In this document: positions 51,956-64,000 of the stretch, piece by piece
Position numbering within the stretch: position 1 is the first letter of the stretch
How the letters are laid out: each line of letters opens with the position of its first letter
Source of the DNA: Gaiellales bacterium
GTDB lineage: Bacteria; Actinomycetota; Thermoleophilia; Gaiellales; JAICJC01
Direction of reading: 5' to 3'
Length of the DNA stretch: 64,000 nt
Assembly: GCA_038212095.1 (NCBI GenBank)
Contig: JBBQUW010000012.1
Span: 3,526 to 67,525, forward strand
Notes under the pieces: generated by a model
Told to the model about the DNA's origin: nothing
Databases searched by the model: none
The model's input: only the letters and a program-made list of their open reading frames with translations
Translations under genes and position numbers: made by a program

Positions 51956-52440
51956 TCAGGCATCAAACGGCCGAATGCGAGTGTGCCGCAGGGTTTCCTC
52001 CTTCGTGTCCCAAAGAAAGCCGCCGAGTTCCCCCAACCTGACCTTTCTACCGTGCGCACTGGTGGCTTGGATGAGCACGACCGGCGCCGGGAGAGCGGGG
52101 CCTGGATCGTTCGCGATCGTTCTAGCGGCCGTCGAGTCGCGTCCGCTGGGCCTGGCGACGCCTCTTGGGTGTGTGTGCCAGTCTCCGAGGTATCGCAATT
52201 GGCTATCGGACTCGCGGTAAACGTGGTCAATGAGCCTTTGGGTGTGCTCGCGGTCCGGCCCGTATCCCCACAGCCGGTGCTTTGCAGCTGGGCCTGGCCC
52301 GAACGCCTGGACGACGACGGACCGTCGTTCTCGGCCAGGTAGCCAAACAGGCTTCCGCCTGTTTCTCTGAGCCAATGGCGCCTCGACTCTCGCTCGATCA
52401 CTGCCTTGGCGTCCTCCTGAATCCAAATCACGCTGGACAC
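51956..52440 (-). pseudogene. JAB/MPN (Prok-JAB) peptidase, frameshifted near 52322
   Basis: One frame gives ETGGSLFGY; the other gives GPGP...YLGDWHTHP...PS..D. Confidence 0.75.
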
Positions 52441-53430
52441 ACAGGACACTCCGGGTGTCGCGGCAGCTTGCCTTCGTGCCAGCGGTCGGCGGCAGCCCGA
52501 AGCTTGAGCACGATCCAGTCCGGGCCGGTGGGATAGTCGGTGATCGCGGCTGTTTGGACGGTCATGCGCGCGGTCGCTGCGATCACCTCTTGAGTGTCGA
52601 AGCCAGCGCACGAGGCGGCCGGGTGAGAACAGCCGTAGGGCGTGAAGTGATCGAGGATTCCCTCAGGCACCATCGGAATCGAGCCGCTTCGTTGGTGTAT
52701 CCTGAAGCACTCGGGGCAACCGCCACCGGGCTTGAAGGCGACGACGCGGCCGCCGACACCGCCCGGCGTGATCGCCGCCATGATCAGCGGCACACCCTCT
52801 GCCATGCAGTGTCTCCAGAGGGCGTCGGTGACCATCGCGGATCCTGTTGCATCCACCACGACAGCGGATGCGCTGATCAGATCATGGATCCTCTGTCTTG
52901 ACTCGATGCTCCCGCCCACCTGAAGCACGTGTGCACGCGTGGAGACCAGCGGATTGGCGCGCGCGGCCAGCTCAGCCACCGCCTCGGCCTTGAACCGCCC
53001 GGCATGATCAACGGTCAGCACGTGACGCACACCGTTGTTCACATCAAAGACGTCGCTGTCGACCAGATCGATGGCACCGGCTCCGGCGCGAGCTATCTCA
53101 AGTGCGAGCGGGCCACCGAGTGAGCCCGCACCAACGATCGTGATCACGGCCTTCTCGAATCCCCTGAGCTCTCGAGTGCGTGCCCGTTGGACAAGCCGGC
53201 TCAGGGCCTGGGTAGCGAACTCCCGTACCCGCTCAACCGACTCATCAGCGCGCTGGGTAATCTCAAACACCCGCCACGCGCGGCGATGATCGCCTCGACG
53301 CGGCGCCTCCTCGAAGTAGGAGACCGCGACCACAAACGTCTTTGACTGAAGACGCCGGCCTTTCTTGTGGCCCTTCTTGCCCACCGACACGTTCCTTGGC
53401 AGTTGCCGGACGGCCTCCCTGAGCGGTTCG
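52428..53430 (-). pseudogene. ThiF/E1-like adenylyltransferase, N-terminally truncated
   Basis: IVGAGSLG, DSDVFDVNNGVRH, DATG, CPEC and CPVC; upstream sequence is HsdS. Confidence 0.75.
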
Positions 53431-54307
53431 AACCGTCCACGGGCGCGACTCCAACCTTCTTGAAGTACGGACGCAGCTTGCCGAAGAGAATATCCCCCGC
53501 CTTGAATCGGCTCGTCGTCCCAGAAACGCTTGATCGCTCTCCCCAGGCGGAGAGAACAGTTGATCCGCGAGGCATGACGTCCAGTCCGATGTAGGGACTG
53601 TGATCGTCTCGTGTGCCGGCGGGCGCCGTATCCTTGACCAACTGGACGACCTCCCGCAGTTCGACCACGCGCCATGCCCTGGGAATCATCCCAATCTCCG
53701 AATCGACTAAGTCGTCTGCGCCGTCGAAGTCGATGAACCGAGACCGGAACACAGCCTCGCCGATCTGTTCGAGCGTCAAGCAAATACGTCGATTCAACTC
53801 GATCTTCTCGTCGAAGACGCCCAACGTGGTCGCGACGGCGCGTTGCCGGGGCAGCGATGGCAGCGCGATGGGAAGCGACGAAAACGTCTTTTTGTTCAGA
53901 ATCGGCTGCGCGGATCCACCCGCCGCGAGCTGTCTGAACTCGGCGCGACGAGCGAGCAGAGCGTAATAGACGAACATTGGATCCGCGATGTCTTCCCGGA
54001 CAATGATCGAGTTGATCTGCTGGTTTGTGACTGAGTTCGCGCCTGCTATGGCAACCTTTCCCATGTCCGAACCGATGCAGGACACCATTACGCTGCCGCA
54101 GGGGATGGTGGCGCTCACCACAGACCCAAGTCCATGCGGGCTGAGGTTACGGAGTGTCCGCTCGATCACTCGCCTGCCGTCCATGTCACTAGGCGTAACG
54201 AATGGGACGTCGCCCCCAAAGTCCTCCGGGAGCGCTCCGGGAGGGGTTCGCCCAGTTACGACTCGCCCGAGATCAGAGATGGTGACGGTCGAACCATGCT
54301 TACTCAA
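53430..54307 (-). pseudogene. hsdS: type I restriction-modification specificity subunit, truncated
   Basis: TGRTP, TNQQI, GGSAQP, LPRQRAV...LEQIGEAVFRSRF, GDILFGKLRPYFKK; second TRD breaks off. Confidence 0.8.
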
Positions 54308-55910
54308 GCCGCAGCCCTCGGAGCTTGACGCGAATCTCATCTTCCAGCCGTCGTCCGCACCCAAACTGACCTTCGAGGATCGCTGTCAGGTGTGCGACGC
54401 GCTCGTTGAACGGCTCATCCCAGGCAAGATCTGTGCCGGCGGTGCCAACATACCGCCCTGGCGTCAGTATGTAGTCGCGCTTTTCGATGTCGTTATGTCG
54501 GGCCGCGAAGGAGAATCCCGCCTCGTCGACGTACTCGCCCGCCTCCGGTCCGCCGCGCCAGGCGTGGTAGGCGTCGGTAATGCAAAAGATCTCGTTTTCG
54601 GTTAGCTCGATCTGAGTTCGGTTGACCTTGACGCCCATCTTCCGGGCGTCGATGAAGAGCGTCTCGCCTCGGCGGTCTCGCTCGCCGGCCGAGGCTTTGT
54701 TTCGGTCAAGGAACCACAGGCACACTGGGATCCCGGTGGTGAAGAAGAGTTGAGGCGGAAGCGCGACGATGCAGTCAATGAGATCGTCGAGGATGATCTT
54801 CTCGCGGATCTTGCCCTCTTGACCGCCGGCTGAAAGCGAGCCGTTGGCCATGACGAACCCGGCTTTGCCGTCCGGCGCGAGATGGTGGATGAAGTGCTGA
54901 ATCCAGGCGTAGTTGGCGTTTCCATCAGTCGGAGCGCCATAGACCCAGCGCACGTCGTCTGCGACCTGGTCGGCGCCCCACTTCTTCATGTTGAAGGGCG
55001 GGTTGGCCATGATGTAGTCGGCTCGCAAATCCTTGTGCTGGTCATCAAGTAGCGTGTCTCCCAGCGCGAGGCTGCCTGAGAGGCCGTGGATGGCCAGGTT
55101 CATCTTGCCGATGCGCCAGGTAGCCTGGTTCATCTCTTGGCCGTAGAGCGCGATGTCCTGGGCGCGGCCGCCGTGCGCCTCGACGAAACGGCCCGACTGG
55201 ATGAAGAGACCGGCCGAGCCAAAGGCAGGCTCGTAGATTCGGCCCTTGAACGGCTCGAGCATCTCAACCAGGAGCCGCGTGACCGAGGCTGGGGTGTAGA
55301 ACTCGCCGCCGCGATGGCCCTCGGCGCGGGCGAAGGTCTTGATGAAGTACTCGTAGGTGCGGCCGAGAATGTCTCGCGCCTCCTCAGCGCTCTGGCCAAA
55401 TCCGATTTTGGCGATAGTCGTCACCAGTTCACCGAGCTTGGCCGGCGAGAGAGCAGCGCGCGCGTAGATCCTGGGCAGTACGCCTCGAAGCGAGGTGTTC
55501 TCCTGCTCGATCAGCTCGAGCGCGCGGTCGATCCTGACGCCGATGTCAGCCTGGTTGGCGCTGGCGAGCAGGCCCTCGTCGATGCCCTCAGGGTTCGTCC
55601 AGTGCCAACGGGCCCGCTCGGGCACCCAGAAGACGTTCTCAGCCGTGTACTCGTCCCGATCCTCGAGGATATCTGAGCGCTCGGCCTCATCCTCCGTGAA
55701 CAGATCACTTGCCGGGTCGTGCGTCTCAGCCTCGAGGGTCTCGCGCTTGATCGTGAAGGCGTCTGAGACGTACTTCAGGAACAAGAGGCCGAGCACGAGA
55801 TGCTTGTACTCGGAGGACTCGACGCTGCCGCGCAGGCCGTCAGCCGCTTCAAACAGGGTTCTGGCGAAGGGCAGGTCGGTGCCGTTGCCGCCGGTGGGGT
55901 TCGTCGCCAT
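54300..55910 (-). CDS. hsdM: type I restriction-modification methyltransferase subunit
   Basis: LGLLFLKY, GEFYTP, EPAFGSAG, ANPPFN, LTPGRYVG. Confidence 0.93.
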   Translation of the reverse strand: MATNPTGGNGTDLPFARTLFEAADGLRGSVESSEYKHLVLGLLFLKYVSDAFTIKRETLEAETHDPASDLFTEDEAERSDILEDRDEYTAENVFWVPERARWHWTNPEGIDEGLLASANQADIGVRIDRALELIEQENTSLRGVLPRIYARAALSPAKLGELVTTIAKIGFGQSAEEARDILGRTYEYFIKTFARAEGHRGGEFYTPASVTRLLVEMLEPFKGRIYEPAFGSAGLFIQSGRFVEAHGGRAQDIALYGQEMNQATWRIGKMNLAIHGLSGSLALGDTLLDDQHKDLRADYIMANPPFNMKKWGADQVADDVRWVYGAPTDGNANYAWIQHFIHHLAPDGKAGFVMANGSLSAGGQEGKIREKIILDDLIDCIVALPPQLFFTTGIPVCLWFLDRNKASAGERDRRGETLFIDARKMGVKVNRTQIELTENEIFCITDAYHAWRGGPEAGEYVDEAGFSFAARHNDIEKRDYILTPGRYVGTAGTDLAWDEPFNERVAHLTAILEGQFGCGRRLEDEIRVKLRGLRLE

Positions 55911-55965
55911 GGGCTCTATTATCACCGGAGTTTGGGCGGCACGGCGGTTGTGTGCGCCCTCGAAG

Positions 55966-56715
55966 CTAGCAGTTCACGTAGCGCACCGGTGATTGGCTGC
56001 CACGCTTGGTCAGGTGATCGACGCTGCCGAGCCGGTACTTCTCGTCCATCTCTGGCGAGCGGTGGCCGTTGAAGCCGACTCGGCCGGCGACGTGCGGCGC
56101 TGGGTACCAGTCATCGATCACGTAGCAGCCCCGGATGATGCCTCGCGCCACTGCGAAGGCGTAGGCGGCACCTTCGCGTCGGGTGCCGAGCTTCCATTCC
56201 TGCTTGACCGCCTGGTAGAGCTCGTCGCCGTCGATATTCGGCGTGCGACTCCACACCTTCTCGATCTTGATCAAAAGCACCGGCTCCGTGATGTCGACCC
56301 GCTCAGCGCGGTACTCGGCGACGAGGTCGTCGAGCGGTCGCCAACCGCGGGCGGTGCCGTGCCCGCGTTGCAGGTTTGTCAGCCAGTCGTGACCGGCCAG
56401 TCGCAAGGCGTCGATCACGGCAGCCTCGACCTGGTAGGCCTCGTCGCTGCTCTCAAGATGATGGCGGAGTATTTCGACCCCGACCTGCTTGCCAGCCTGG
56501 TGGATTTCCTGTATGCCGGCCATCTTCAGCTCACGCTTTGACTCGCCAGCCTGCCACGCGCCACTGGCCGCCTTGGCGTGTTGTATGCACGCGATCTCCG
56601 ACACCCTTGCCGACGTAGAAGATGCGGTTGTCGCGGAGCGAAGCGCGTAGACGTACCAGCCGAGCTTCTCTGCCACGCCGGGGAGGAAGCGGAAAGATTT
56701 TGATTCGTCGGTCAC
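55966..56715 (-). pseudogene. GIY-YIG (LEM-3-like) nuclease with internal frameshifts
   Basis: WYVYAL in one frame, IFYVGKG..DR in another, then EAAVID...LTN back in the first frame. Confidence 0.7.
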
Positions 56716-57105
56716 TTTGGTTGCTCCTATTGAGGTCAGTTGAATAGTCGCGGCGCTGCTTCCAGTCTGTCGCGACCAAATCGGGCCCGCTTACGCCCAG
56801 TCGATCGGCGACGAGCCTGATGGTCTCCTCGTCGCGAAGGCGGCAGACCGTCATCTGGTTGGAAAACAGGCCGCCTCGAGGATCGCATCGGCGACCGATC
56901 GAGTGGTGAGCCAGTCGACCCCCAACGACGTACTCGCAGTTATCGGCATCGTTAGCGTCCAAGCTGAACCGGGCGTCGATGCCCTGGCGTTCGAAGGGCT
57001 GGCCGGCTAGGGCAGGTCGCTCGGAGTGGTAAACCTGAAGAGGCCCCGCTGGTGGCGGGGCCTCTTGGGTTCGGGTGTGGATTGGTCGCACGCTTTGGCT
57101 GTCCC

Positions 57106-57207
57106 CTAGATGTAGTGACCGAGGCCGGCCGTGGCGGCGAGGCTGACGGCCGTGGCGGCCAAGAGGGCGAGTCGGGCGAGGCGGTGGTTGGTGGTGATGC
57201 GGGTCAT
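57106..57207 (-). CDS. 33-aa secreted-type peptide precursor, copy E (MTRITTNHRLARLALLAATAVSLAATAGLGHYI)
   Basis: RBS AAGGAG, ATG...TAG; paralogous to the four peptides at 62.5-63.1 kb. Confidence 0.85.
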   Translation of the reverse strand: MTRITTNHRLARLALLAATAVSLAATAGLGHYI

Positions 57208-57255
57208 GGTGTGTGCTCCTTGTGATGTGGGTCGCGGGGTGCGTCCCTTGTGTGG

Positions 57256-57299
57256 AGTGTCGGAGCGAGTCCTAAAGCGGCGCATACGGCTGGCTAAAG
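57256..57299 (-). promoter_or_regulatory. SARP-type direct-repeat promoter 1
   Basis: Minus strand CTTTAG-N16-CTTTAG-N10-GACACT. Confidence 0.7.
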
Positions 57300-57393
57300 T
57301 CGGGGGAGGCGGCTGTGGCCGAGCTTGGTTGGCTGGTCGGCAGCGACTCCTGGTTGACAGGCTGGGTGGTGTGGGCGAGTCTTGCTTGTGCTG

Positions 57394-60300
57394 ATGAGTG
57401 CGAGCGTTGAGATTGGTGTGCTTGGGTCGCTGGTGGTGTGCCGCGATGGCACGGTCGTAGAGGTCGCGGCGCCCAAGCAGCGAGCTCTGCTCGCCTTGCT
57501 CGCATTGGAGGCTCCACGGGCGGTTTCCACCGATTCGTTGGTCGATCAACTCTGGGAGGGCGAAGCGCCCAGGTCGGCGAGTACTGCGGTGCAGGTGTAC
57601 GTCTCGCAGCTGCGCAAGGCGTTGGGCAAGGTGGCGATCGCGACCCGCCCGCCCGGCTACGCACTTGATGTGGCTGTCGGCGGCGTCGACGCGCTGGCGT
57701 TCGAGCAGTTGGCGGCCGAGGGACGGTCGCTGGTTCGGAGCGGCGAGGTTGAGGCGGCCGCCCGCGTGCTGAATCAGGCGCTGGGTCTCTGGCGTGGTCA
57801 GGCGCTGGCCGAGTTCGTGTACCAGGGATGGGCGGCGGGACCGGCGGAGCGGTTGGAGGAGCTGCGTGTGGTCGCCCGCGAGGATCTCGTGGATGCGCGG
57901 TTGGGGTTTGGGGAAGCGCGGGAGATGGTCGCTGAGTTGGAAGCCTTGGTTGCCGCGTTTCCGCTCCGCGAGCGGCTACGTGGGCAGCTGATGTTGGCGC
58001 TGTATCGTGCTGGCCGGCAGGCTGATGCGCTGGCTGTGTATCAGGATGCGCGGCGCGTGCTGGTCGACGAGCTCGGGATCGATCCCTCGCCTGGTTTGGC
58101 GGAGCTCGAGCGGCGCATCCTGCAGCAGGACCCGGAGCTCGGATCAACGTCGATGCCTTTGACGGCGGTTATCTCAGATACCGAGAGCGATCAGGCGCGC
58201 GCCGCTCGCGTCGATGGCTCCGCCGGCGGGGGCACACAGCTGTCCAGCGCTAAGGCGGACGCTCCCCGTCGGGAGCGCAAGGTCGTGACGATCCTGTTCT
58301 GTGACCTGGTCGAGTTCACGGCCGCTGCTGAGGCGAGCGATCCCGAGGATGTGGACGTGATCCTCGGTCGCTACTACGCGATGGCGCGGGGCGAGGTTGA
58401 GCGGTTTGGCGGGACGATTGAGAAGTTCATCGGCGACGCTGTGATGGCGGTGTTCGGCGCACCTGTTGCACGCGAGGACGATCCCGAACGGGCGGTGCGC
58501 GCAGCCTTGGCCATCATCGAGCGGGCCGCCTCGCTTCGCCAAGAGGACGCAACCGCACACCTCGAGGTCAGGCTCGGCGTCACCACCGGAGAGGCACTCG
58601 TCAAGGTCGACGCAGACACTGCTCGCGGTGAGGCAATGGTCTCCGGCGACGTTGTCAACACGGCAGCGCGCCTGCAGGCCGCCGCACCGATCGGTGGCGT
58701 GCTGGTTGATGCGCTCACCATGCGCGCGACCGCTCACGCGATCCAGTATGGAAGGAATGACCCGCTGGTCGTGAAGGGCAAGCGCGAGCCGGTTTCGGTC
58801 TGGCTGGCACTCGAAGCGCTCGCTGTATCTGGTGAAACCAACGACTCGTCAGTGCCGCTGGTGGGGCGGGCGTATGAGCTTGGCGCGCTTCTGAACGCGT
58901 TCGCTCGCACCTGCGAGGACGAGTCGGTGCAGCTTCTCTCGCTTGTCGGGGTACCCGGCATCGGGAAGAGTCGGCTGGTCGCCGAGCTGCGCCAGCATGT
59001 CGATACAGAGCCGGGTCTCGTGACCTGGCTTGAGGGCCGATCGCTTGCCTATGGCGAGGGCCTCGCGTTGTGGGCGCTGGGTGAGATCGTCAAGGGTCGT
59101 TGCGGGGTCAGCGAGGCGGATCCGGCAAAGGTCGCCGCCGAGAAGGTCGAAGCGACGGTCACTCAGCTGATCGATGATCCGGCCGACGCGGCCTGGGTAG
59201 CAGGGCAGCTTGCCTTCTTGGTTGGTGCGGAGGTGGCAGGTGCCACGAGCGGCGTGACTGATCGCGGCGAGGCGTTCGCTGCCTGGCAGAGGTTCGCTGA
59301 GTCCATTGCCGATCAGGGTCCGACAGTGATGGTGTTTGAGGATTTGCACTGGGCAGATGATGCGCTGCTTGACTTCATCGACTTGCTGGCCGACCGCGCC
59401 AGCTCGGTGCCACTGCTTGTGGTCTGTACGGCGCGCCCTGAGCTTCTGCAACGCCGTGCATCCTGGGGCGGCGGCAAGCAGAACGCCACCACGCTGAGCC
59501 TGGCGCCGCTTGCAGACCAGGAGACCGGCCAGCTCGTAACCGAGTTCCTAGGCGAAGACGACGCATTGGGCGAGATGAAGTCACGGGTCATCGCACAGTC
59601 GGAGGGAAACCCCCTGTTCATACGTGAATATGTGCGCATGCTGCGCGACGAGCGTGCCTCCGACTCGGCGAGCGCAGGGAGTGGATCGCTTCCGATTAGC
59701 ATCCAGGGGCTGATCGCCGCCCGCCTGGACGCGCTTTCATCAGAGGAGAAACAGGTCGCACAGGTAGCCTCGGTGATTGGCCGGGTCTCTTGGATCGGGG
59801 CAATCTCGCATCTGCGTGGTACTTCGCCAGCAGGGCTTGACGAGATACTCCACCGACTTGAACGGCGGCAGCTGTTTCGCCGGAACCGGCACACGACGAT
59901 CCCCGGCCACGTCGAGGTCACGTTCACTCATGCCCTGATCCAAGATGTCACCTACCACCAGATTCCCCGCGCCGAGCGCGCGAGCTATCACCGTGCAGCT
60001 GCCGAGTGGATCGAGGGCGTGAGCGGCGAGCGCGACGATCGCCTGGAACTGCTCGCACATCACCTCGGGGCCGCGGCCAGCCTCGACTGCCAAACCGGCA
60101 ACGAGGACGCACGGTTTGCCGAGCGAGCGTCTCGAGCACTCAAGAGCGCCGGTGATCGCGCGGCCAGCCTCGGGGCGTACTCGGCCGCCGCCAATCACTA
60201 CGCGGCAGCGCTTGCGCTGGCAACGGAGGAGGACGATCTCGCGACGGGGCTGTTGCTGCTTGACCGTGGCAAAGTGCTCTTCCAGATCGCCGAGACGTTC

Positions 60301-61437
60301 CCAAACGAGCTCCAGCGCGCGACCGAGATGCTCAGCCGCCTGGGCGACACAACCCACGCCGCGGAGGCCGAAGCCTACCGGGCCGCGTGGCTTGTCAACC
60401 ATAATCAAGCAGTTGAGTCCTACGAGCACATAAAGCACGCCTGCGAACTGCTCCGGGACGAACCGGACTCCCCCGAGAAGGCATTCGCCGTAGTCGGGCG
60501 AGGGCGAATCGGCTCCGAGCTCGGTGACCGCGACTGCTGGGATCACATCGTCGAGGGTCGAGCAATGGCGCAGCGGCTTGGGATCCCTGACCTTGAAGCG
60601 CGAACATTGTTTGTGATCGGTGAGGAGCGCCTGTTTCGCGACGATCCGGAGGGCTTGGTCGACATTGAGGCCAGTCTCGCTGTCGCTCGCACCCTCAGGT
60701 CGGGCCATGCCGTTCTCTGCAAGCTCTGCATCCATGGCGACTACCTGGCCCTCGGTCGTATCAGCGAGGCTCGCGAGCTTCATCTCGAGGCAATGCTGCA
60801 GGCCAGAGATCTCGGCCTTCGCACATACCAAGACGTGCTCCATGCCCAGTTTGCCCGCCTCAGCTTCGTCCTCGGCGACTTTGACGCAGCCCGAGTGACC
60901 GTAGAGGAGGCGCTGAGCTCTCTGACCGCCGGGGGTGATGTCGAGCGAAGCGGGACGCTGGTACTCGGCGACGAGGCGACGGTCGCGATCCGAGCGGTCA
61001 TGAATCTCGCTGACGGGCGACCCAAGGAGGCGAAGAGAGACGCCCGACTGTCCCTACAGGTCGCCCCGGCCGGCTCAACTAGCATGGCTTTGCCGCTGGC
61101 GTTGGCGAGCTTCGTTCACTGGTCGCTCGGCGACCCAACCGCTGCCGAAGGAACGGCAGACGAGTGGTTTGCGATGGTCGAAGCCGAGCGCATCTTTCTG
61201 ACCGGGTTCGCATGGCCATTCCTCGCCCAATCCCTGCGCAGCCTCCATCGCGAGCAGGATCTCTTGGCCGCGATCGCGCGGATCCGCGTCACGACACCCT
61301 GGGTCGAATCCGCCAGGCTGATCGCGACCGACCGCTTCGATGACGCCGCGAAGCTCCTCGTTAGTATCGGCGTATCCGATGCGTTCGTCGCCCTCGTGGG
61401 ACTCAGCGCCGAGCATGGCGCACATCGCACCACCTGA
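57394..61437 (+). CDS. AfsR/SARP regulator: wHTH-BTAD, class III adenylate cyclase, STAND ATPase, TPR-like helical C-terminus
   Basis: KQRALLALL/VYVSQLRK, ALGLWRG/PLRERL, FCDL/EKFIGDA/VNTAARL, GVPGIGKS/FEDLHWAD. Confidence 0.92.
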   Translation: MSASVEIGVLGSLVVCRDGTVVEVAAPKQRALLALLALEAPRAVSTDSLVDQLWEGEAPRSASTAVQVYVSQLRKALGKVAIATRPPGYALDVAVGGVDALAFEQLAAEGRSLVRSGEVEAAARVLNQALGLWRGQALAEFVYQGWAAGPAERLEELRVVAREDLVDARLGFGEAREMVAELEALVAAFPLRERLRGQLMLALYRAGRQADALAVYQDARRVLVDELGIDPSPGLAELERRILQQDPELGSTSMPLTAVISDTESDQARAARVDGSAGGGTQLSSAKADAPRRERKVVTILFCDLVEFTAAAEASDPEDVDVILGRYYAMARGEVERFGGTIEKFIGDAVMAVFGAPVAREDDPERAVRAALAIIERAASLRQEDATAHLEVRLGVTTGEALVKVDADTARGEAMVSGDVVNTAARLQAAAPIGGVLVDALTMRATAHAIQYGRNDPLVVKGKREPVSVWLALEALAVSGETNDSSVPLVGRAYELGALLNAFARTCEDESVQLLSLVGVPGIGKSRLVAELRQHVDTEPGLVTWLEGRSLAYGEGLALWALGEIVKGRCGVSEADPAKVAAEKVEATVTQLIDDPADAAWVAGQLAFLVGAEVAGATSGVTDRGEAFAAWQRFAESIADQGPTVMVFEDLHWADDALLDFIDLLADRASSVPLLVVCTARPELLQRRASWGGGKQNATTLSLAPLADQETGQLVTEFLGEDDALGEMKSRVIAQSEGNPLFIREYVRMLRDERASDSASAGSGSLPISIQGLIAARLDALSSEEKQVAQVASVIGRVSWIGAISHLRGTSPAGLDEILHRLERRQLFRRNRHTTIPGHVEVTFTHALIQDVTYHQIPRAERASYHRAAAEWIEGVSGERDDRLELLAHHLGAAASLDCQTGNEDARFAERASRALKSAGDRAASLGAYSAAANHYAAALALATEEDDLATGLLLLDRGKVLFQIAETFPNELQRATEMLSRLGDTTHAAEAEAYRAAWLVNHNQAVESYEHIKHACELLRDEPDSPEKAFAVVGRGRIGSELGDRDCWDHIVEGRAMAQRLGIPDLEARTLFVIGEERLFRDDPEGLVDIEASLAVARTLRSGHAVLCKLCIHGDYLALGRISEARELHLEAMLQARDLGLRTYQDVLHAQFARLSFVLGDFDAARVTVEEALSSLTAGGDVERSGTLVLGDEATVAIRAVMNLADGRPKEAKRDARLSLQVAPAGSTSMALPLALASFVHWSLGDPTAAEGTADEWFAMVEAERIFLTGFAWPFLAQSLRSLHREQDLLAAIARIRVTTPWVESARLIATDRFDDAAKLLVSIGVSDAFVALVGLSAEHGAHRTT

Positions 61438-61526
61438 ACCGACTCCCATTCACGGTACGCGAACGCACGAGTGCGGCGCCGAGCATCTGGATGCCCGGCG
61501 CCGTGGAGCGCGACAACTCGTTTGGT

Positions 61527-61802
61527 TTAGACGCTGAGCATCGGCTGGTTGGTGCAGGTGGAGGCCGGCGTCCGGGTGGCACTGGAGATCGCGAACTGGA
61601 AGTGGGCGTTGGGAAAGGGGCACAGCGGCGTTTGCATCGACCGAACGACCTGCGGGGCATCGGTCGCCGGGGCTTGCGTCGATGCGAAGAACGATTGCAC
61701 CGTGAGGGTGGTCAGGATGGCGAGCAGAAGGACAGCTGCGTAGCGCGCGATGCGCAGCACTGCCGGGGCGAGGTGATCGGTGGGGACGGTGGCCTGGTTC
61801 AT
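61527..61802 (-). CDS. small membrane-anchored/secreted protein with two cysteines
   Basis: RBS AAGGAG, one TM segment, own SARP-type promoter. Confidence 0.7.
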   Translation of the reverse strand: MNQATVPTDHLAPAVLRIARYAAVLLLAILTTLTVQSFFASTQAPATDAPQVVRSMQTPLCPFPNAHFQFAISSATRTPASTCTNQPMLSV

Positions 61803-61843
61803 GACTGCTCCTTGTGTTCGTTGGATTGTTCTGATCTGTGCTG

Positions 61844-61887
61844 AGTCTGCGATGCCGTGCTAAAGCCACGCTGATGGGCTGCTAAAG
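61844..61887 (-). promoter_or_regulatory. SARP-type direct-repeat promoter 2
   Basis: CTTTAG-N16-CTTTAG-N10-CAGACT. Confidence 0.7.
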
Positions 61888-62307
61888 CTGGCCTATGCGA
61901 GGTCGGGGGAGCCGAGCGATCGGCACGGACACGCGCTCGTGATCGCTCCCACGCCGGCTTGCTCGCCGAGCGGTTGAAGGCCGCTCTTCGGGCGGCGGTG
62001 GGTTTGGCGTGATCGGAGTAGTTGGCGCCGCTTGCGGGGAAAGTCGTATCCATGCAGCTGCGCCGAGCAGTCCGGCGCCAAGCAGCAGGGTGGGCAGGAA
62101 GGGGTCGGGCCACCCACCGGTGAGGTGGCGTGGCGGTGTGACGTAGCAGAGCGCGGGCGTGCAGGCGCGTCGCGGAGTCGTCTGGGTGAACGAGGCGGCG
62201 ATCCGGCCGGCAATCCGGGTTCGCAGAGTCTGCGCGGTGAGACTGCCGGCGATGATCGCCACAATCGTGAATACCGCTAGGGCGCGGCGAAGTCGTGCTT
62301 TGTTCAT
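61882..62307 (-). CDS. small two-TM membrane protein
   Basis: RBS GAGGAG, two hydrophobic helices, own SARP-type promoter. Confidence 0.6.
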   Translation of the reverse strand: MNKARLRRALAVFTIVAIIAGSLTAQTLRTRIAGRIAASFTQTTPRRACTPALCYVTPPRHLTGGWPDPFLPTLLLGAGLLGAAAWIRLSPQAAPTTPITPNPPPPEERPSTARRASRRGSDHERVSVPIARLPRPRIGQL

Positions 62308-62353
62308 GGCTCCTCCTCTGGATGGGATCGCCTTTGGGCGATCTGGTGGAGCC

Positions 62354-62397
62354 ACTGTCGAACAGCCCCCTAAAGCGGCAACAAGCGGCGGCTAAAG
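62354..62397 (-). promoter_or_regulatory. SARP-type direct-repeat promoter 3
   Basis: CTTTAG-N16-CTTTAG-N10-GACAGT. Confidence 0.7.
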
Positions 62398-62478
62398 CGA
62401 CGGGATCTGAAGCCCGGAGGTAAGGCCAGAGGGTCAACGCAGCTGAGCACGACCAGTGAGCCACGGGCGGCGGAAAGA

Positions 62479-62516
62479 GACAGCGGAGACCCCACCACGA
62501 CGGGGTCTCCGCTGTC
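62479..62516 (-). terminator. intrinsic terminator of peptide array
   Basis: 15-bp perfect stem GACAGCGGAGACCCC / GGGGTCTCCGCTGTC, followed by TCTTT on the minus strand. Confidence 0.8.
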
Positions 62517-62546
62517 AACGGGTTTGAACGGCTACTGGCAGAGCCG

Positions 62547-62648
62547 CTACTTCCAGTTGCTACCGCCAACAGTCGCGGCGATGCTGATCGCGGTTGCGGC
62601 GAGCAGGGCGAGGCGGGTGATGCGGTGGTTAGTGGTGATGCGGGTCAT
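62547..62648 (-). CDS. 33-aa peptide precursor D (MTRITTNHRITRLALLAATAISIAATVGGSNWK)
   Basis: RBS AAGGAG, 102 nt, TAG stop. Confidence 0.88.
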   Translation of the reverse strand: MTRITTNHRITRLALLAATAISIAATVGGSNWK

Positions 62649-62697
62649 GGTGTGCTCCTTCGCGGGTCGTTGAAGTGGGAAAGGCGCGGGATGTCGC

Positions 62698-62799
62698 CTA
62701 GCTCCAGTGGCTGCCGCCGACGGTGGCGGCGATGCTGATTGCGGTTGCGGCGAGCAGGGCGAGGCGGGCGAAGCGATGGTTGGTGGTGATACGGCTCAT
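62698..62799 (-). CDS. 33-aa peptide precursor C (MSRITTNHRFARLALLAATAISIAATVGGSHWS)
   Basis: RBS AGGAG, 102 nt, TAG stop. Confidence 0.88.
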   Translation of the reverse strand: MSRITTNHRFARLALLAATAISIAATVGGSHWS

Positions 62800-62847
62800 G
62801 ATGTGCTCCTGGTGGGTTGTTGAGGTGGCCGGGGCGCGGTATGAGGC

Positions 62848-62949
62848 CTAGCGCCAGTTGCTGTTGCCGATGGTGGCGGCGATGCTGATCGCGGTTGCGG
62901 CGAGCAGGGCGAGGCGGGTGAGGCGATAGTGGCGGGTGATACGGGTCAT
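62848..62949 (-). CDS. 33-aa peptide precursor B (MTRITRHYRLTRLALLAATAISIAATIGNSNWR)
   Basis: RBS AAGGAG, 102 nt, TAG stop. Confidence 0.88.
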   Translation of the reverse strand: MTRITRHYRLTRLALLAATAISIAATIGNSNWR

Positions 62950-62991
62950 GGTGAGCTCCTTTGATGGTGTTGAGGTGGTCGAGGCTCGGAT

Positions 62992-63093
62992 CTAATGCCA
63001 GTTGCTGCCGCCGACTGTGGCGGCGACGCTGATCGCGGTTGCAGCGAGGAGGGCGAGGCGAGTGAGTCGGTGGTTGCTGGTGATGCGGGTCAT
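62992..63093 (-). CDS. 33-aa peptide precursor A (MTRITSNHRLTRLALLAATAISVAATVGGSNWH)
   Basis: RBS AAGGAG, 102 nt, TAG stop. Confidence 0.88.
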   Translation of the reverse strand: MTRITSNHRLTRLALLAATAISVAATVGGSNWH

Positions 63094-63141
63094 GGTGTGC
63101 TCCTTCTGGTGTGGGTCGCGGTGTGCGTTCCTTGTGTGAGC

Positions 63142-63185
63142 AGTGTCGGGGGAGCGGCTAAAGCGGTGGCTATGGGCGGCTAAAG
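63142..63185 (-). promoter_or_regulatory. SARP-type direct-repeat promoter 4 (peptide array)
   Basis: CTTTAG-N16-CTTTAG-N10-GACACT. Confidence 0.7.
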
Positions 63186-63236
63186 CGGCGGCTCCGACTC
63201 GCTGACAGGGCCCGGTGAGCGGGGAGGGTTGCTTAG

Positions 63237-63313
63237 CTGACGGTTGCGAGCGTTGAGATCAGGTCGTTGGGGTCGCTTGAGGTGCCCGCGACGGTGTCGC
63301 CGTTGACGTGGCC
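63237..63313 (+). pseudogene. 5' remnant of a second SARP regulator gene
   Basis: ASVEIRSLGSLEV/RDGVAVDVA (one frameshift) versus ASVEIGVLGSLVVCRDGTVVEVA at 57394. Confidence 0.65.
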
Positions 63314-63480: not shown

Positions 63481-64000
63481 GTGAGTCGGCGTCGGAAGGG
63501 CACCAAGAAGGCCGAAGCGGTCTCGCATGTGCGCGGCTCGACGTTCTTTTCGAAGGATCCCAAGCTGTCGCAGACTTACTACGTGCTGAAGTGCCTGCGC
63601 GAGCAGCCGCAGTTCTGGGACGAGTTCGTGCTCGAGACGACGGTGGTCAATGAGATGGGTCGCAAGCGCGAGCCGGGGCTTTGGGGGCCGGCGTTCCTCA
63701 CCTTCATGATGTCGGGCGAGACGGCCATGCAGAAGTTCGCCGACACCCACATCTCTGACCGCATCTGGACTGAGTTGCTCGGGTTTGTCGAGCCGCCTGA
63801 TCGCCAGACTGTTTACTTGCGGTTCGTCGAGATGGAGAAGCTCGAGCGGATGCTCGAGGCACGCGACGGGATCGGCCCCTTCGCCAAGCTGCGAAACCGG
63901 TTGATCCAGCATGCCATGAAGCATGACCCTGAGATCCTGCGCGACGTGATCTTCGACGGCACCTCGGTGCAGACCCATTCCGCTCTTCACAAGGTGGCCG
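63481..64000 (+). CDS. DDE transposase (IS4/IS5-like), partial
   Basis: RBS GAAGGAG, GTG start; LLGFVEPPDRQTVYLRF and VIFDGTSVQTH (first catalytic Asp). Runs off the window. Confidence 0.65.
   Translation, partial: MSRRRKGTKKAEAVSHVRGSTFFSKDPKLSQTYYVLKCLREQPQFWDEFVLETTVVNEMGRKREPGLWGPAFLTFMMSGETAMQKFADTHISDRIWTELLGFVEPPDRQTVYLRFVEMEKLERMLEARDGIGPFAKLRNRLIQHAMKHDPEILRDVIFDGTSVQTHSALHKVA

Follow-up and report, generated by a model that had tools for sequence, protein, structure and literature searches.

The locus studied here raises the question of whether a large regulator perceives the small peptides encoded next to it or whether it controls their production. It lies between positions 57106 and 63313 of the window, by which is meant the whole stretch of 64,000 nucleotides taken from contig JBBQUW010000012.1 of a Gaiellales bacterium (assembly GCA_038212095.1), and it contains five genes for 33-residue peptides and the gene of a 1347-residue SARP-cyclase-STAND-TPR protein. 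The original prediction, made from the letters of the DNA, was that of a peptide quorum-sensing circuit analogous to the RRNPP systems. With moderate confidence, we favour another answer: the locus would be a self-contained transcriptional module on a mobile defence island, similar to AfsR/afsS. Small envelope peptides would be its outputs, turned on by the STAND-SARP protein.

The five peptide genes are open reading frames (ORFs) of 102 nt each, all on the minus strand, and their products are 33-residue paralogues in which 19 of the 33 alignment columns are invariant. The genes, their tails (Table 1), the tandem arrangement of four of them with a period of about 150 bp (144, 150 and 151 nt from start to start) and the strong ribosome-binding site in front of each (an AGGAG-type Shine-Dalgarno sequence 6-8 nt 5' of the start) were all found as originally predicted. 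Homology and indels are both seen in the tandem spacers (49, 48 and 42 nt), whereas the coding length is constant. The peptide ORFs have a G+C content at third codon positions (GC3) of 0.82-0.94 in a genome of 69% GC and, in codons 2-27, the proportion of synonymous differences (pS 0.26-0.43) exceeds that of non-synonymous ones (pN 0.05-0.18) in nine of the ten pairs, the exception being the pair 62698/62848 (pS 0.04, pN 0.14). The GC3 values and the excess of pS over pN indicate that the peptides are translated and selected, in agreement with the selection on the peptide that had been proposed from the diverged spacers and the fixed coding length. In the six tail codons pN is close to pS, and the tail appears to be under a weaker or different constraint than the rest of the peptide.

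A tblastn search of the organism's own genome (2.94 Mb, 61 contigs) with all five peptides returned the five window copies and no additional one. Sequencing data covering the locus consisted of DNA contigs of the same organism only, together with paralogue noise over the cyclase domain, and no RNA sequencing run is listed for this organism's locus. In a second run of the same study, one contig has 3 nt deleted inside peptide gene 1, at window position 57144 (depth 3.1 of 16.4). This deletion, seen in one contig of low depth, may represent a 32-residue variant like the database member P0003.

Four transcription units of the locus are preceded, on the minus strand, by the same element GCTTTAG-N15-GCTTTAG, whose heptamers have a period of 22 bp. 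The CTTTAG promoter motif named in the original prediction proved to be real and far above chance: the heptamer CTTTAGC occurs six times in the window for 1.3 expected, and the pair CTTTAG-N14-18-CTTTAG four times for none in 100 shuffles. When the search for the same pair was extended to the 61 contigs of the genome, four occurrences were obtained in total, all of them at the locus. Ten nucleotides after each box stands a -10-like element (GACACT, GACAGT or CAGACT), followed about 45 nt further by AGGAG and an ATG. In the alignment of the four promoters, those of ORF91 and ORF142 share with the peptide promoters little beyond the heptamers, the -10-like element and the ribosome site, and the boxes have therefore been kept for function and are not simple duplication remnants. 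According to PMC10936776, SARP sites are direct repeats 11 or 22 bp apart, the 3' repeat being about 8 bp from the -10 element. The geometry of the boxes, with its 22-bp period and a -10-like element 10 nt after the heptamer, fits this rule, and the four boxes are predicted to be SARP-type sites. By eye, a degenerate heptamer-like stretch, such as GCTTGTT in the ORF142 box, can be seen between the heptamers, at 11 bp from each (57283-57290, 61871-61878, 62381-62388 and 63169-63176), and a weak third repeat in 11-bp register is possible.

Besides the peptides, the boxes precede ORF91 and ORF142. The C-terminal half of ORF142 has a weak coding signal (GC3 0.60) and its true end is uncertain. Neither product matches a family in Pfam, NCBIfam, PHROGs or PADLOC, and ORF91 was found in none of 120 relatives. 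All seven box-preceded products have a basic N-terminal stretch followed by a hydrophobic segment. Hairpins bound five transcription units (the lone peptide gene, the regulator, ORF91, ORF142 and the four-peptide operon), and a terminator scan found no T-tailed terminator at the gene ends of the locus. To judge from these promoters, the seven small genes are most likely the private targets of the regulator.

Table 1. Coordinates of the locus in the window, of its neighbours and of the peptide-regulator pairs recognised in other assemblies.
Feature	Position	Strand	Remarks
Peptide gene 1, 33 residues	57106-57207	-	tail GLGHYI; divergent from the regulator, 186 bp between both start codons
Tandem peptide gene 1 of 4	62992-63093	-	tail GGSNWH
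Tandem peptide gene 2 of 4	62848-62949	-	tail GNSNWR
Tandem peptide gene 3 of 4	62698-62799	-	tail GGSHWS
Tandem peptide gene 4 of 4	62547-62648	-	tail GGSNWK
Predicted SARP-type box, peptide gene 1 promoter	57272-57299	-	GACACT 10 nt after second heptamer
Predicted SARP-type box, ORF91 promoter	61860-61887	-	
Predicted SARP-type box, ORF142 promoter	62370-62397	-	
Predicted SARP-type box, single promoter of the four-peptide operon	63158-63185	-	
ORF91, 91 residues	61527-61802	-	N-terminal signal-anchor-like segment; two Cys; GC3 0.85
ORF142, 142 residues	61882-62310	-	signal-peptide-like N-terminus; second hydrophobic segment
Regulator, SARP domain, residues 1-260	57394-58173	+	OmpR-type winged helix and BTAD; Pfam; AfsR 8hvr E 4e-48, EmbR 2fez E 8e-41
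Regulator, class III nucleotide cyclase domain, residues 290-475	58261-58818	+	Pfam; alignment with solved cyclases
Regulator, STAND NTPase module and arm, residues 481-889	58834-60060	+	AAA_16; Walker A GVPGIGKS, Walker B FEDLHWAD
Regulator, TPR-like solenoid sensor, residues 890-1347, about 24 helices, with stop codon	60061-61437	+	AlphaFold2 model; Foldseek
Hairpin, perfect 12-bp stem	57038-57066	-	inverted-repeat search; likely terminator without T tail, 40 nt past the stop of the lone peptide gene
Hairpin, 14-bp stem	61474-61503	.	inverted-repeat search; likely bidirectional terminator between the convergent regulator and ORF91
Hairpin, perfect 15-bp stem	62479-62516	-	inverted-repeat search; likely operon terminator, 30 nt past the last tandem peptide gene
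E1-E2/Cap2-like ThiF protein	52428-53783		PADLOC E 1e-27; NCBIfam 6A-MBL cap2_3 below cut-off
Type I HsdS	53201-54364		
Type I HsdM	54300-55925		
GIY-YIG protein matching PD-T4-3	55966-56715		E 4e-30
Downstream genes, partly beyond the window	63481-64000 and L031 507-6904		645-residue protein with CxxC pairs, PilZ protein, tyrosine integrase, small CxC6-like protein, VRR-NUC, DUF3631
Peptide P0141 and regulator P0014	ENA, one contig, 22,551 bp		59% identity to P0013
Peptide P0143 and regulator P0015	JGI, 6,197 bp		58% identity to P0013
Peptide P0136 and regulator P0020	JGI, two contigs, longest 17,035 bp		40% identity to P0013

The regulator most likely starts at the ATG at 57394, which gives 1347 residues, the same size as in the public protein set (P0013). 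The domain reading of the original prediction (winged helix-turn-helix with BTAD, adenylate cyclase, STAND ATPase and a TPR-like C-terminus) was upheld by Pfam for the first three parts (Trans_reg_C, E 4e-10; BTAD, E 1e-46; Guanylate_cyc, E 4e-19; AAA_16, E 2e-21) and by a structural model for the last. With the AfsR chains of three cryo-electron microscopy entries (8hvr/8jke/8k60) the SARP part aligns at E 4e-48, and with EmbR at E 8e-41. In the alignment of the cyclase domain with 2w01, 6fht and 3r5g, the residues D, D, K of EKFIGD and N/R of VNTAARL stand in the expected columns; we take them to be the two metal-binding Asp, the substrate Lys and the transition-state Asn and Arg, and by these catalytic residues the domain is assigned to the class III cyclases.

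No solved structure was matched by the NOD or the sensor part in the profile search, and Pfam gave no significant TPR match in the C-terminal 458 residues. As the fold obtained from the single sensor sequence was unreliable (predicted local distance difference test score, pLDDT, of 43), an AlphaFold2 model based on a 17-row alignment, including 16 homologous sensor domains from collected loci, was used instead. This model is an all-helical hairpin solenoid (pLDDT 86.3, predicted TM-score 0.82), and its best PDB matches in Foldseek are LGN/Pins, APPBP2, APC subunits and Tom71, together with the STAND-TPR protein 6mfv (E from 2.8e-6; TMq 0.36-0.64). On the model, the sensor is a TPR solenoid of about 12 repeats, and LGN, APPBP2 and the other best matches are TPR proteins holding extended peptides. 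A complex prediction of sensor residues 900-1347 with the peptide alignment gave a score of 0.00 without controls, to which no weight is given in either direction.

The cyclase-NOD part (residues 291-910) has as its best NCBIfam match the TOMM system kinase/cyclase fusion TIGR03903 (E 2e-66), and natural-product clusters typically have multi-copy precursor arrays and SARP activators, as are found here. Both observations would suit precursors of ribosomally synthesized and post-translationally modified peptides (RiPPs), with a conserved leader and a short core that varies; the genes of their modifying enzymes would lie elsewhere, and the SARP protein would be the pathway-specific activator. We consider this explanation very improbable. 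With 224.5 bits for a cut-off of 705.75, membership of TIGR03903 is not established, and the peptide "leader" looks like a membrane or signal segment and not like a RiPP recognition sequence. Radical_SAM, YcaO and LanC, the three families searched, gave no match on the 73-kb contig, in keeping with the earlier statement that the window encodes no RiPP-modifying enzyme, and the whole genome gave none for YcaO or Peptidase_C39. Since the boxes occur nowhere else in the genome, no distant enzyme gene should be co-regulated with the peptides.

The peptides were then considered as a family. A profile of the five window peptides, run against 1.84 billion protein representatives with a threshold of E ≤ 0.001, gave 12 matches, which were one window peptide, one spurious 494-residue repeat protein and ten proteins of 32-59 residues. 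A wider profile run against 5.8 billion protein clusters gave 38 proteins, all with E ≤ 2.1e-6; five are the window's own and the 33 others lie on contigs of 23 other sizes. The size of the family is constant at 33 residues, the longer entries being upstream mis-starts, and these 33 further members bear out the claim of a conserved peptide family. Among 36 sequences, G28 is present in all, R12 and A25 in 35, A24 in 34, M1 in 33, R9 in 32 and W32 in 28, and each of M1, T2, R3, I4, R9 and R12 is found in at least 30.

With the original prediction, a search across genomes of Thermoleophilia and Actinomycetota had been suggested. In the order sample, none of 400 other genomes had a full-length peptide match (91 weak partial matches fell on hydrophobic cores of larger frames, best E 5.4e-4), and the peptides were equally found in none of the 400 genomes of the class sample and none of the 400 of the phylum sample. 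A metagenome scan with the five-peptide alignment gave 598 pattern matches, none of them confirmed, and viral contigs gave no match to the peptides or to the sensor segment. Searches of Pfam, NCBIfam and PHROGs gave no model for the peptides, and the protein atlas provided no usable lead for peptide or ORF91. The peptides form a new 33-residue family without Pfam or NCBIfam model, found in environmental assemblies only and missed by standard annotation. As to the kind of peptide, a twin-arginine or lipoprotein signal was ruled out by the lack of an RR motif and of Cys, leader-peptide attenuation by the terminator, rather than a gene, that comes after the array, and a double-glycine leader with a C39 transporter by the lack of a Peptidase_C39 match in the genome.

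The common layout is a basic N-region, a hydrophobic region, AATVG (positions 24-28) and a variable five-residue tail; by eye, the basic n-region has 12 residues and the h-region 11, and AATVG places T at -3 and G at -1. Such a layout could be that of a Sec signal peptide of residues 1-28 (n-region 1-12, h-region 13-23, c-region AATVG). In this pheromone explanation, a cut after G28 would release pentapeptides of the type x-[GS]-x-W-x, which would be re-imported by Opp, bind to the TPR sensor and activate the STAND-SARP protein, leading to more peptide. We judge it unlikely, and think no better of a variant in which the L-[SG]-H-x-x tails serve as well, the activator raises peptide transcription together with cyclic AMP, and the mobile element counts its own carriers. 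In the 36 sequences the entropy is lowest over AATVG (0-1.0 bit) and highest in the tail (1.05-2.95 bits, position 33 being the most variable), which is compatible with a conserved c-region followed by a signal, as are the near-equal pN and pS of the tail codons. However, the tails fall into two classes only, x-[GS]-x-W-x and L-[SG]-H-x-x; among the 28 distinct five-residue tails, six recur on at least two contigs of different size, one contig of 6,678 bp encodes seven different peptides, and the variation inside one array is as great as that between loci. The tail therefore reads as a constrained motif with few free positions and not as a hypervariable locus-specific code, and the several pherotypes of the original prediction, in the sense of locus-specific ones, are not evident, with G28 invariant and W32 so widely kept. 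The first 12 residues are also conserved far beyond the need of a signal peptide, a feature which hints at a cytoplasmic partner.

According to PMC10075063, the RRNPP signature combines five criteria: a small propeptide of 10-100 residues, its export by Sec (SignalP) or PptAB with maturation outside the cell, a receptor of 250-500 residues, TPRs in this receptor to which the mature peptide binds, and adjacency of the two genes (-60 to 400 bp). Against that description, three features are found here, namely a propeptide of 33 residues, divergent genes 186 bp apart and a TPR receptor (solenoid by model, with peptide binding as a proposed property), whereas the receptor of 1347 residues, with its ATPase and cyclase, falls outside the size range. 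The resemblance of the sensor model to the extended-peptide TPRs LGN and APPBP2 also fits a pheromone, and import is conceivable in a genome encoding about 9-10 SBP_bac_5 (Opp-type) binding proteins, although export, cleavage, import and binding are all proposed steps. The SARP boxes 5' of the peptide genes would give positive feedback; of the loop originally suggested, this arm stands, but the same boxes also precede two non-peptide ORFs.

The choice between a signal and an output is also informed by the peptide-regulator pairs outside this genome, which were recognised by equal size in bp, source and contig number of the protein records and not from contig sequence. In the regulator search, 7,899 of the 8,000 scored candidates pass E 1e-20 and the best 120 proteins were listed; the SARP-cyclase-AAA_16 architecture is common in environmental data, BTAD being present in 116 of these 120. 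Three peptides stand on contig records equal to those of SARP-cyclase-STAND regulators (Table 1), including the two closest homologues, and the predicted association of the family with this regulator class was thus recovered elsewhere. P0014 and P0015 are the sole proteins with a closely related sensor (48-49% identity in a sensor-only protein search). P0020, by contrast, shows 60% identity to the window regulator over the SARP domain, while over the NOD (39%) and the sensor (30%) it is no closer than unrelated family members are. It has nevertheless the N-terminal signature of the clade and the QVY[VI]SQLRK recognition helix of P0013-P0018 (SARP-domain identity of P0014-P0018 to the window regulator, 59-67%), and P0136, the peptide linked to it, is typical of the peptide family. 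Since P0020 keeps its SARP domain with so different a sensor, the peptide link tracks the DNA-binding domain and not the sensor, as expected if the peptide genes are targets of the regulator. The same pair, a divergent sensor beside a family-typical peptide, speaks against a pheromone, as do the identical tails on different contigs. Of the RRNPP-analogous quorum circuit of the original prediction, there remain the TPR receptor, the small propeptide and the adjacency; the size of the receptor and the link that follows the SARP domain instead of the sensor do not agree with it.

Outside these pairs, the relatives of the regulator are mostly of another kind. Cyclase-AAA_16-TPR paralogues gave 14 matches in this genome and 0-18 in 40 relatives, and every match listed outside the own genome begins at query residue 208 or later, hence without SARP domain; such SARP-less proteins are strongly expanded in this lineage. 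A metagenome scan with a six-regulator alignment returned at least 80 loci, most of them with a paralogue that lacks the SARP domain. Among the 111 collected loci, the window's own alone has a peptide, and the six collected loci with a SARP domain have no comparable small hydrophobic ORF in the upstream 1.5 kb, apart from a doubtful 35-residue ORF in L092. In a repeat-pair scan of all collected loci, the window's own locus alone stood out. The sensor-specific segment gave a single weak match on genome contigs, over 32 residues in Allokutzneria, without peptide.

If the peptides are outputs, a mechanism can be proposed by analogy with AfsR and the STAND proteins. A ligand bound to the TPR sensor would release autoinhibition and the STAND module would oligomerise in a nucleotide-dependent manner; SARP domains would then sit as a pair on the heptamers, both on a single face of the DNA, and bring in RNA polymerase. 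The same oligomerisation could pair the cyclase domains into active dimers producing cyclic AMP. The output would be a burst of seven small proteins, all presumably aimed at the membrane or beyond since all of them start with a basic stretch followed by a hydrophobic one. The 33-residue peptides would be inserted with their N-terminus inside, with two fates that fit the sequence equally well: either a single-pass membrane peptide, in which A24xxxG28 would serve for helix packing and W32 would anchor the peptide at the interface, or a precursor cut by signal peptidase after T26-V27-G28, which would free the pentapeptide.

Several points weigh against the peptides being simply the outputs of a private regulator. 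Each step of the mechanism above is a proposal. The distance from the heptamer to GACACT is 10 nt and not 8, a difference which hinges on where the end of the repeat is set, and two other BTAD proteins of the genome (C8:69917-70354 and C5:83588-84025, in open frames of 778 and 1021 residues) could in principle use the boxes. The links rest on matching record size, source and contig number, adjacency and boxes being unseen there; only three of the 23 other peptide-bearing contig sizes match a listed regulator, no peptide stands on a contig equal in size to those of P0016-P0019, the regulators ranked 3-6, and none of the best 120 listed belongs to any of eight peptide contigs of 6.6-56 kb. The conserved AATVG, the variable tail and a sensor like peptide-binding TPRs fit a pheromone equally well, and the role of target does not exclude that of ligand.

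The neighbourhood bears on what such outputs could be for. Directly upstream of the locus, a run of defence genes extends over 52428-56715, and on the other side mobile-element genes reach the contig end (Table 1); the 645-residue downstream protein has no Pfam, NCBIfam, PHROGs or PADLOC match, and no tRNA gene was found in the window. Because of these defence and mobile neighbours, and because the peptides and ORF91 were not found in the other genomes searched, the module is probably cargo of a mobile island. A 186-residue ORF at 56531-57091 on the minus strand shares 185 nt with the start of the GIY-YIG gene, has a GC3 of 0.66 and a weak PADLOC match to PDC-S11 (E 2e-6 over 55 residues), and may not be a real gene.

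In such surroundings, the peptides may be effectors that act on membranes in a module of defence or competition. They could be a burst of pore-forming or depolarising peptides made when the STAND sensor detects a phage or another insult (abortive infection), or several leaderless peptides that together resemble a bacteriocin, for which the co-regulated ORF91 and ORF142 would be the immunity proteins. This possibility, a specific version of the output reading, remains tentative; it is at the same time our leading guess, though a doubtful one, on what the peptides do for the mobile element. The locus adjoins the PD-T4-3 match, HsdS/HsdM and the E1-E2/Cap2-like ThiF protein on one side and the integrase, VRR-NUC and DUF3631 on the other, but this island association is known from one locus only. 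Arrays of four and seven copies would deliver a high dose of peptide, and the small residues at positions 14, 18, 22, 24 and 28 form one face of a helix; the peptides are, however, neither amphipathic nor cationic along the helix, there is no exporter within the locus, and toxicity is a proposal. Variable sensors with the same output resemble defence STANDs. The NOD region matches Avs1b weakly (E 0.0024), and the match of the cyclase-NOD part to phrog_25255, a PHROG of unknown function (E 9.5e-53), implies that phage genomes carry relatives of this part. The cyclase domain matches PycC models (best E 1e-18), but these matches reflect class III cyclase homology only, no effector binding cyclic nucleotide monophosphates (cNMP) was found at the locus, and the cyclase-AAA_16-TPR paralogues are abundant and housekeeping-like in the lineage.

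Among known systems, the closest to the output reading is AfsR-AfsS, where afsS adjoins afsR and encodes a hydrophilic protein of 63 residues. Both AfsR and the present regulator begin with a SARP domain, after which come a STAND NTPase and a TPR sensor, and in both cases the target promoter (predicted here) has two direct repeats over the -35 region and the target is a small ORF. The NCBIfam AfsR equivalog NF053617 gave 208.9 bits for a cut-off of 1430, with the SARP part alone matching, which leaves the regulator outside this equivalog. It differs from AfsR by the class III cyclase inserted between SARP and NOD, by repeats 22 bp apart instead of 11 bp, by four promoters and seven predicted targets, by the nature of the targets, which are hydrophobic tandem 33-residue peptides, and by its location on a probable mobile island of a Thermoleophilia genome. 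AfsR activates afsS, according to PMC10936776.

Rgg/SHP pairs are similar in another respect: a small gene, whose product is basic at the N-terminus and hydrophobic in the centre, is divergent from an adjacent gene for a cytoplasmic TPR transcription factor, with the binding site of this factor (predicted here) in front of the peptide gene, and both kinds of locus are found on mobile elements (probable here). The present receptor, which includes an ATPase and a cyclase, has three times the length expected, and its DNA-binding domain is a SARP winged helix where Rgg has an XRE-type helix-turn-helix. No RRNPP receptor is present among the 50 Foldseek matches listed, and the peptides stand here in arrays of 4-7 and in the phylum Actinomycetota, whose quorum signals are typically small molecules, as stated in the RRNPP_detector paper.

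The domain order, the size of about 1300 residues and the neighbouring small peptide genes recall TIGR03903. Members of the TOMM system kinase/cyclase fusion family have an N-terminal output domain, a cyclase homology domain, an ATPase and repeats over some 1300 residues, and stand beside small peptide precursor genes. Here the N-terminal domain is a SARP and not a kinase, the genome has neither a cyclodehydratase nor a YcaO, and the score is far under the cut-off. With Avs and Pycsar, the locus shares the STAND NTPase, the C-terminal TPR sensor, the N-terminal output domain, the defence island and a PycC-matching cyclase; its output is, however, a transcription factor instead of a nuclease, protease or other direct effector, the Avs1b match is marginal, a cNMP-binding effector is lacking, and SARP-less paralogues are numerous in ordinary genomes of the lineage. 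A full-text literature search of main texts turned up no description of a SARP-cyclase-STAND regulator accompanied by peptide genes. The best-supported description of the locus is that of a variation on the theme of a large SARP and its small target, which brings together a conserved 33-residue family and, on a probable mobile island, a box regulon that is unique in the genome.

The NLR immune receptors have bacterial relatives in the large SARPs. Of these, AfsR is to our knowledge the only one to have been dissected, and the input of its sensor is still unclear. The present locus offers a compact and closed case, with one NLR-like activator, four identical genome-unique boxes and a presumed seven-gene output consisting entirely of very small envelope proteins, and the input-output logic of a STAND transcription factor is directly testable on it. 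If the peptides were exported signals, RRNPP-type peptide quorum sensing would be extended to the Actinomycetota and to an NLR-type receptor, and a true pheromone would make this the first ribosomal-peptide pheromone circuit of the phylum. If they are membrane effectors, the locus would represent a defence-island module in which a STAND sensor acts through transcription.

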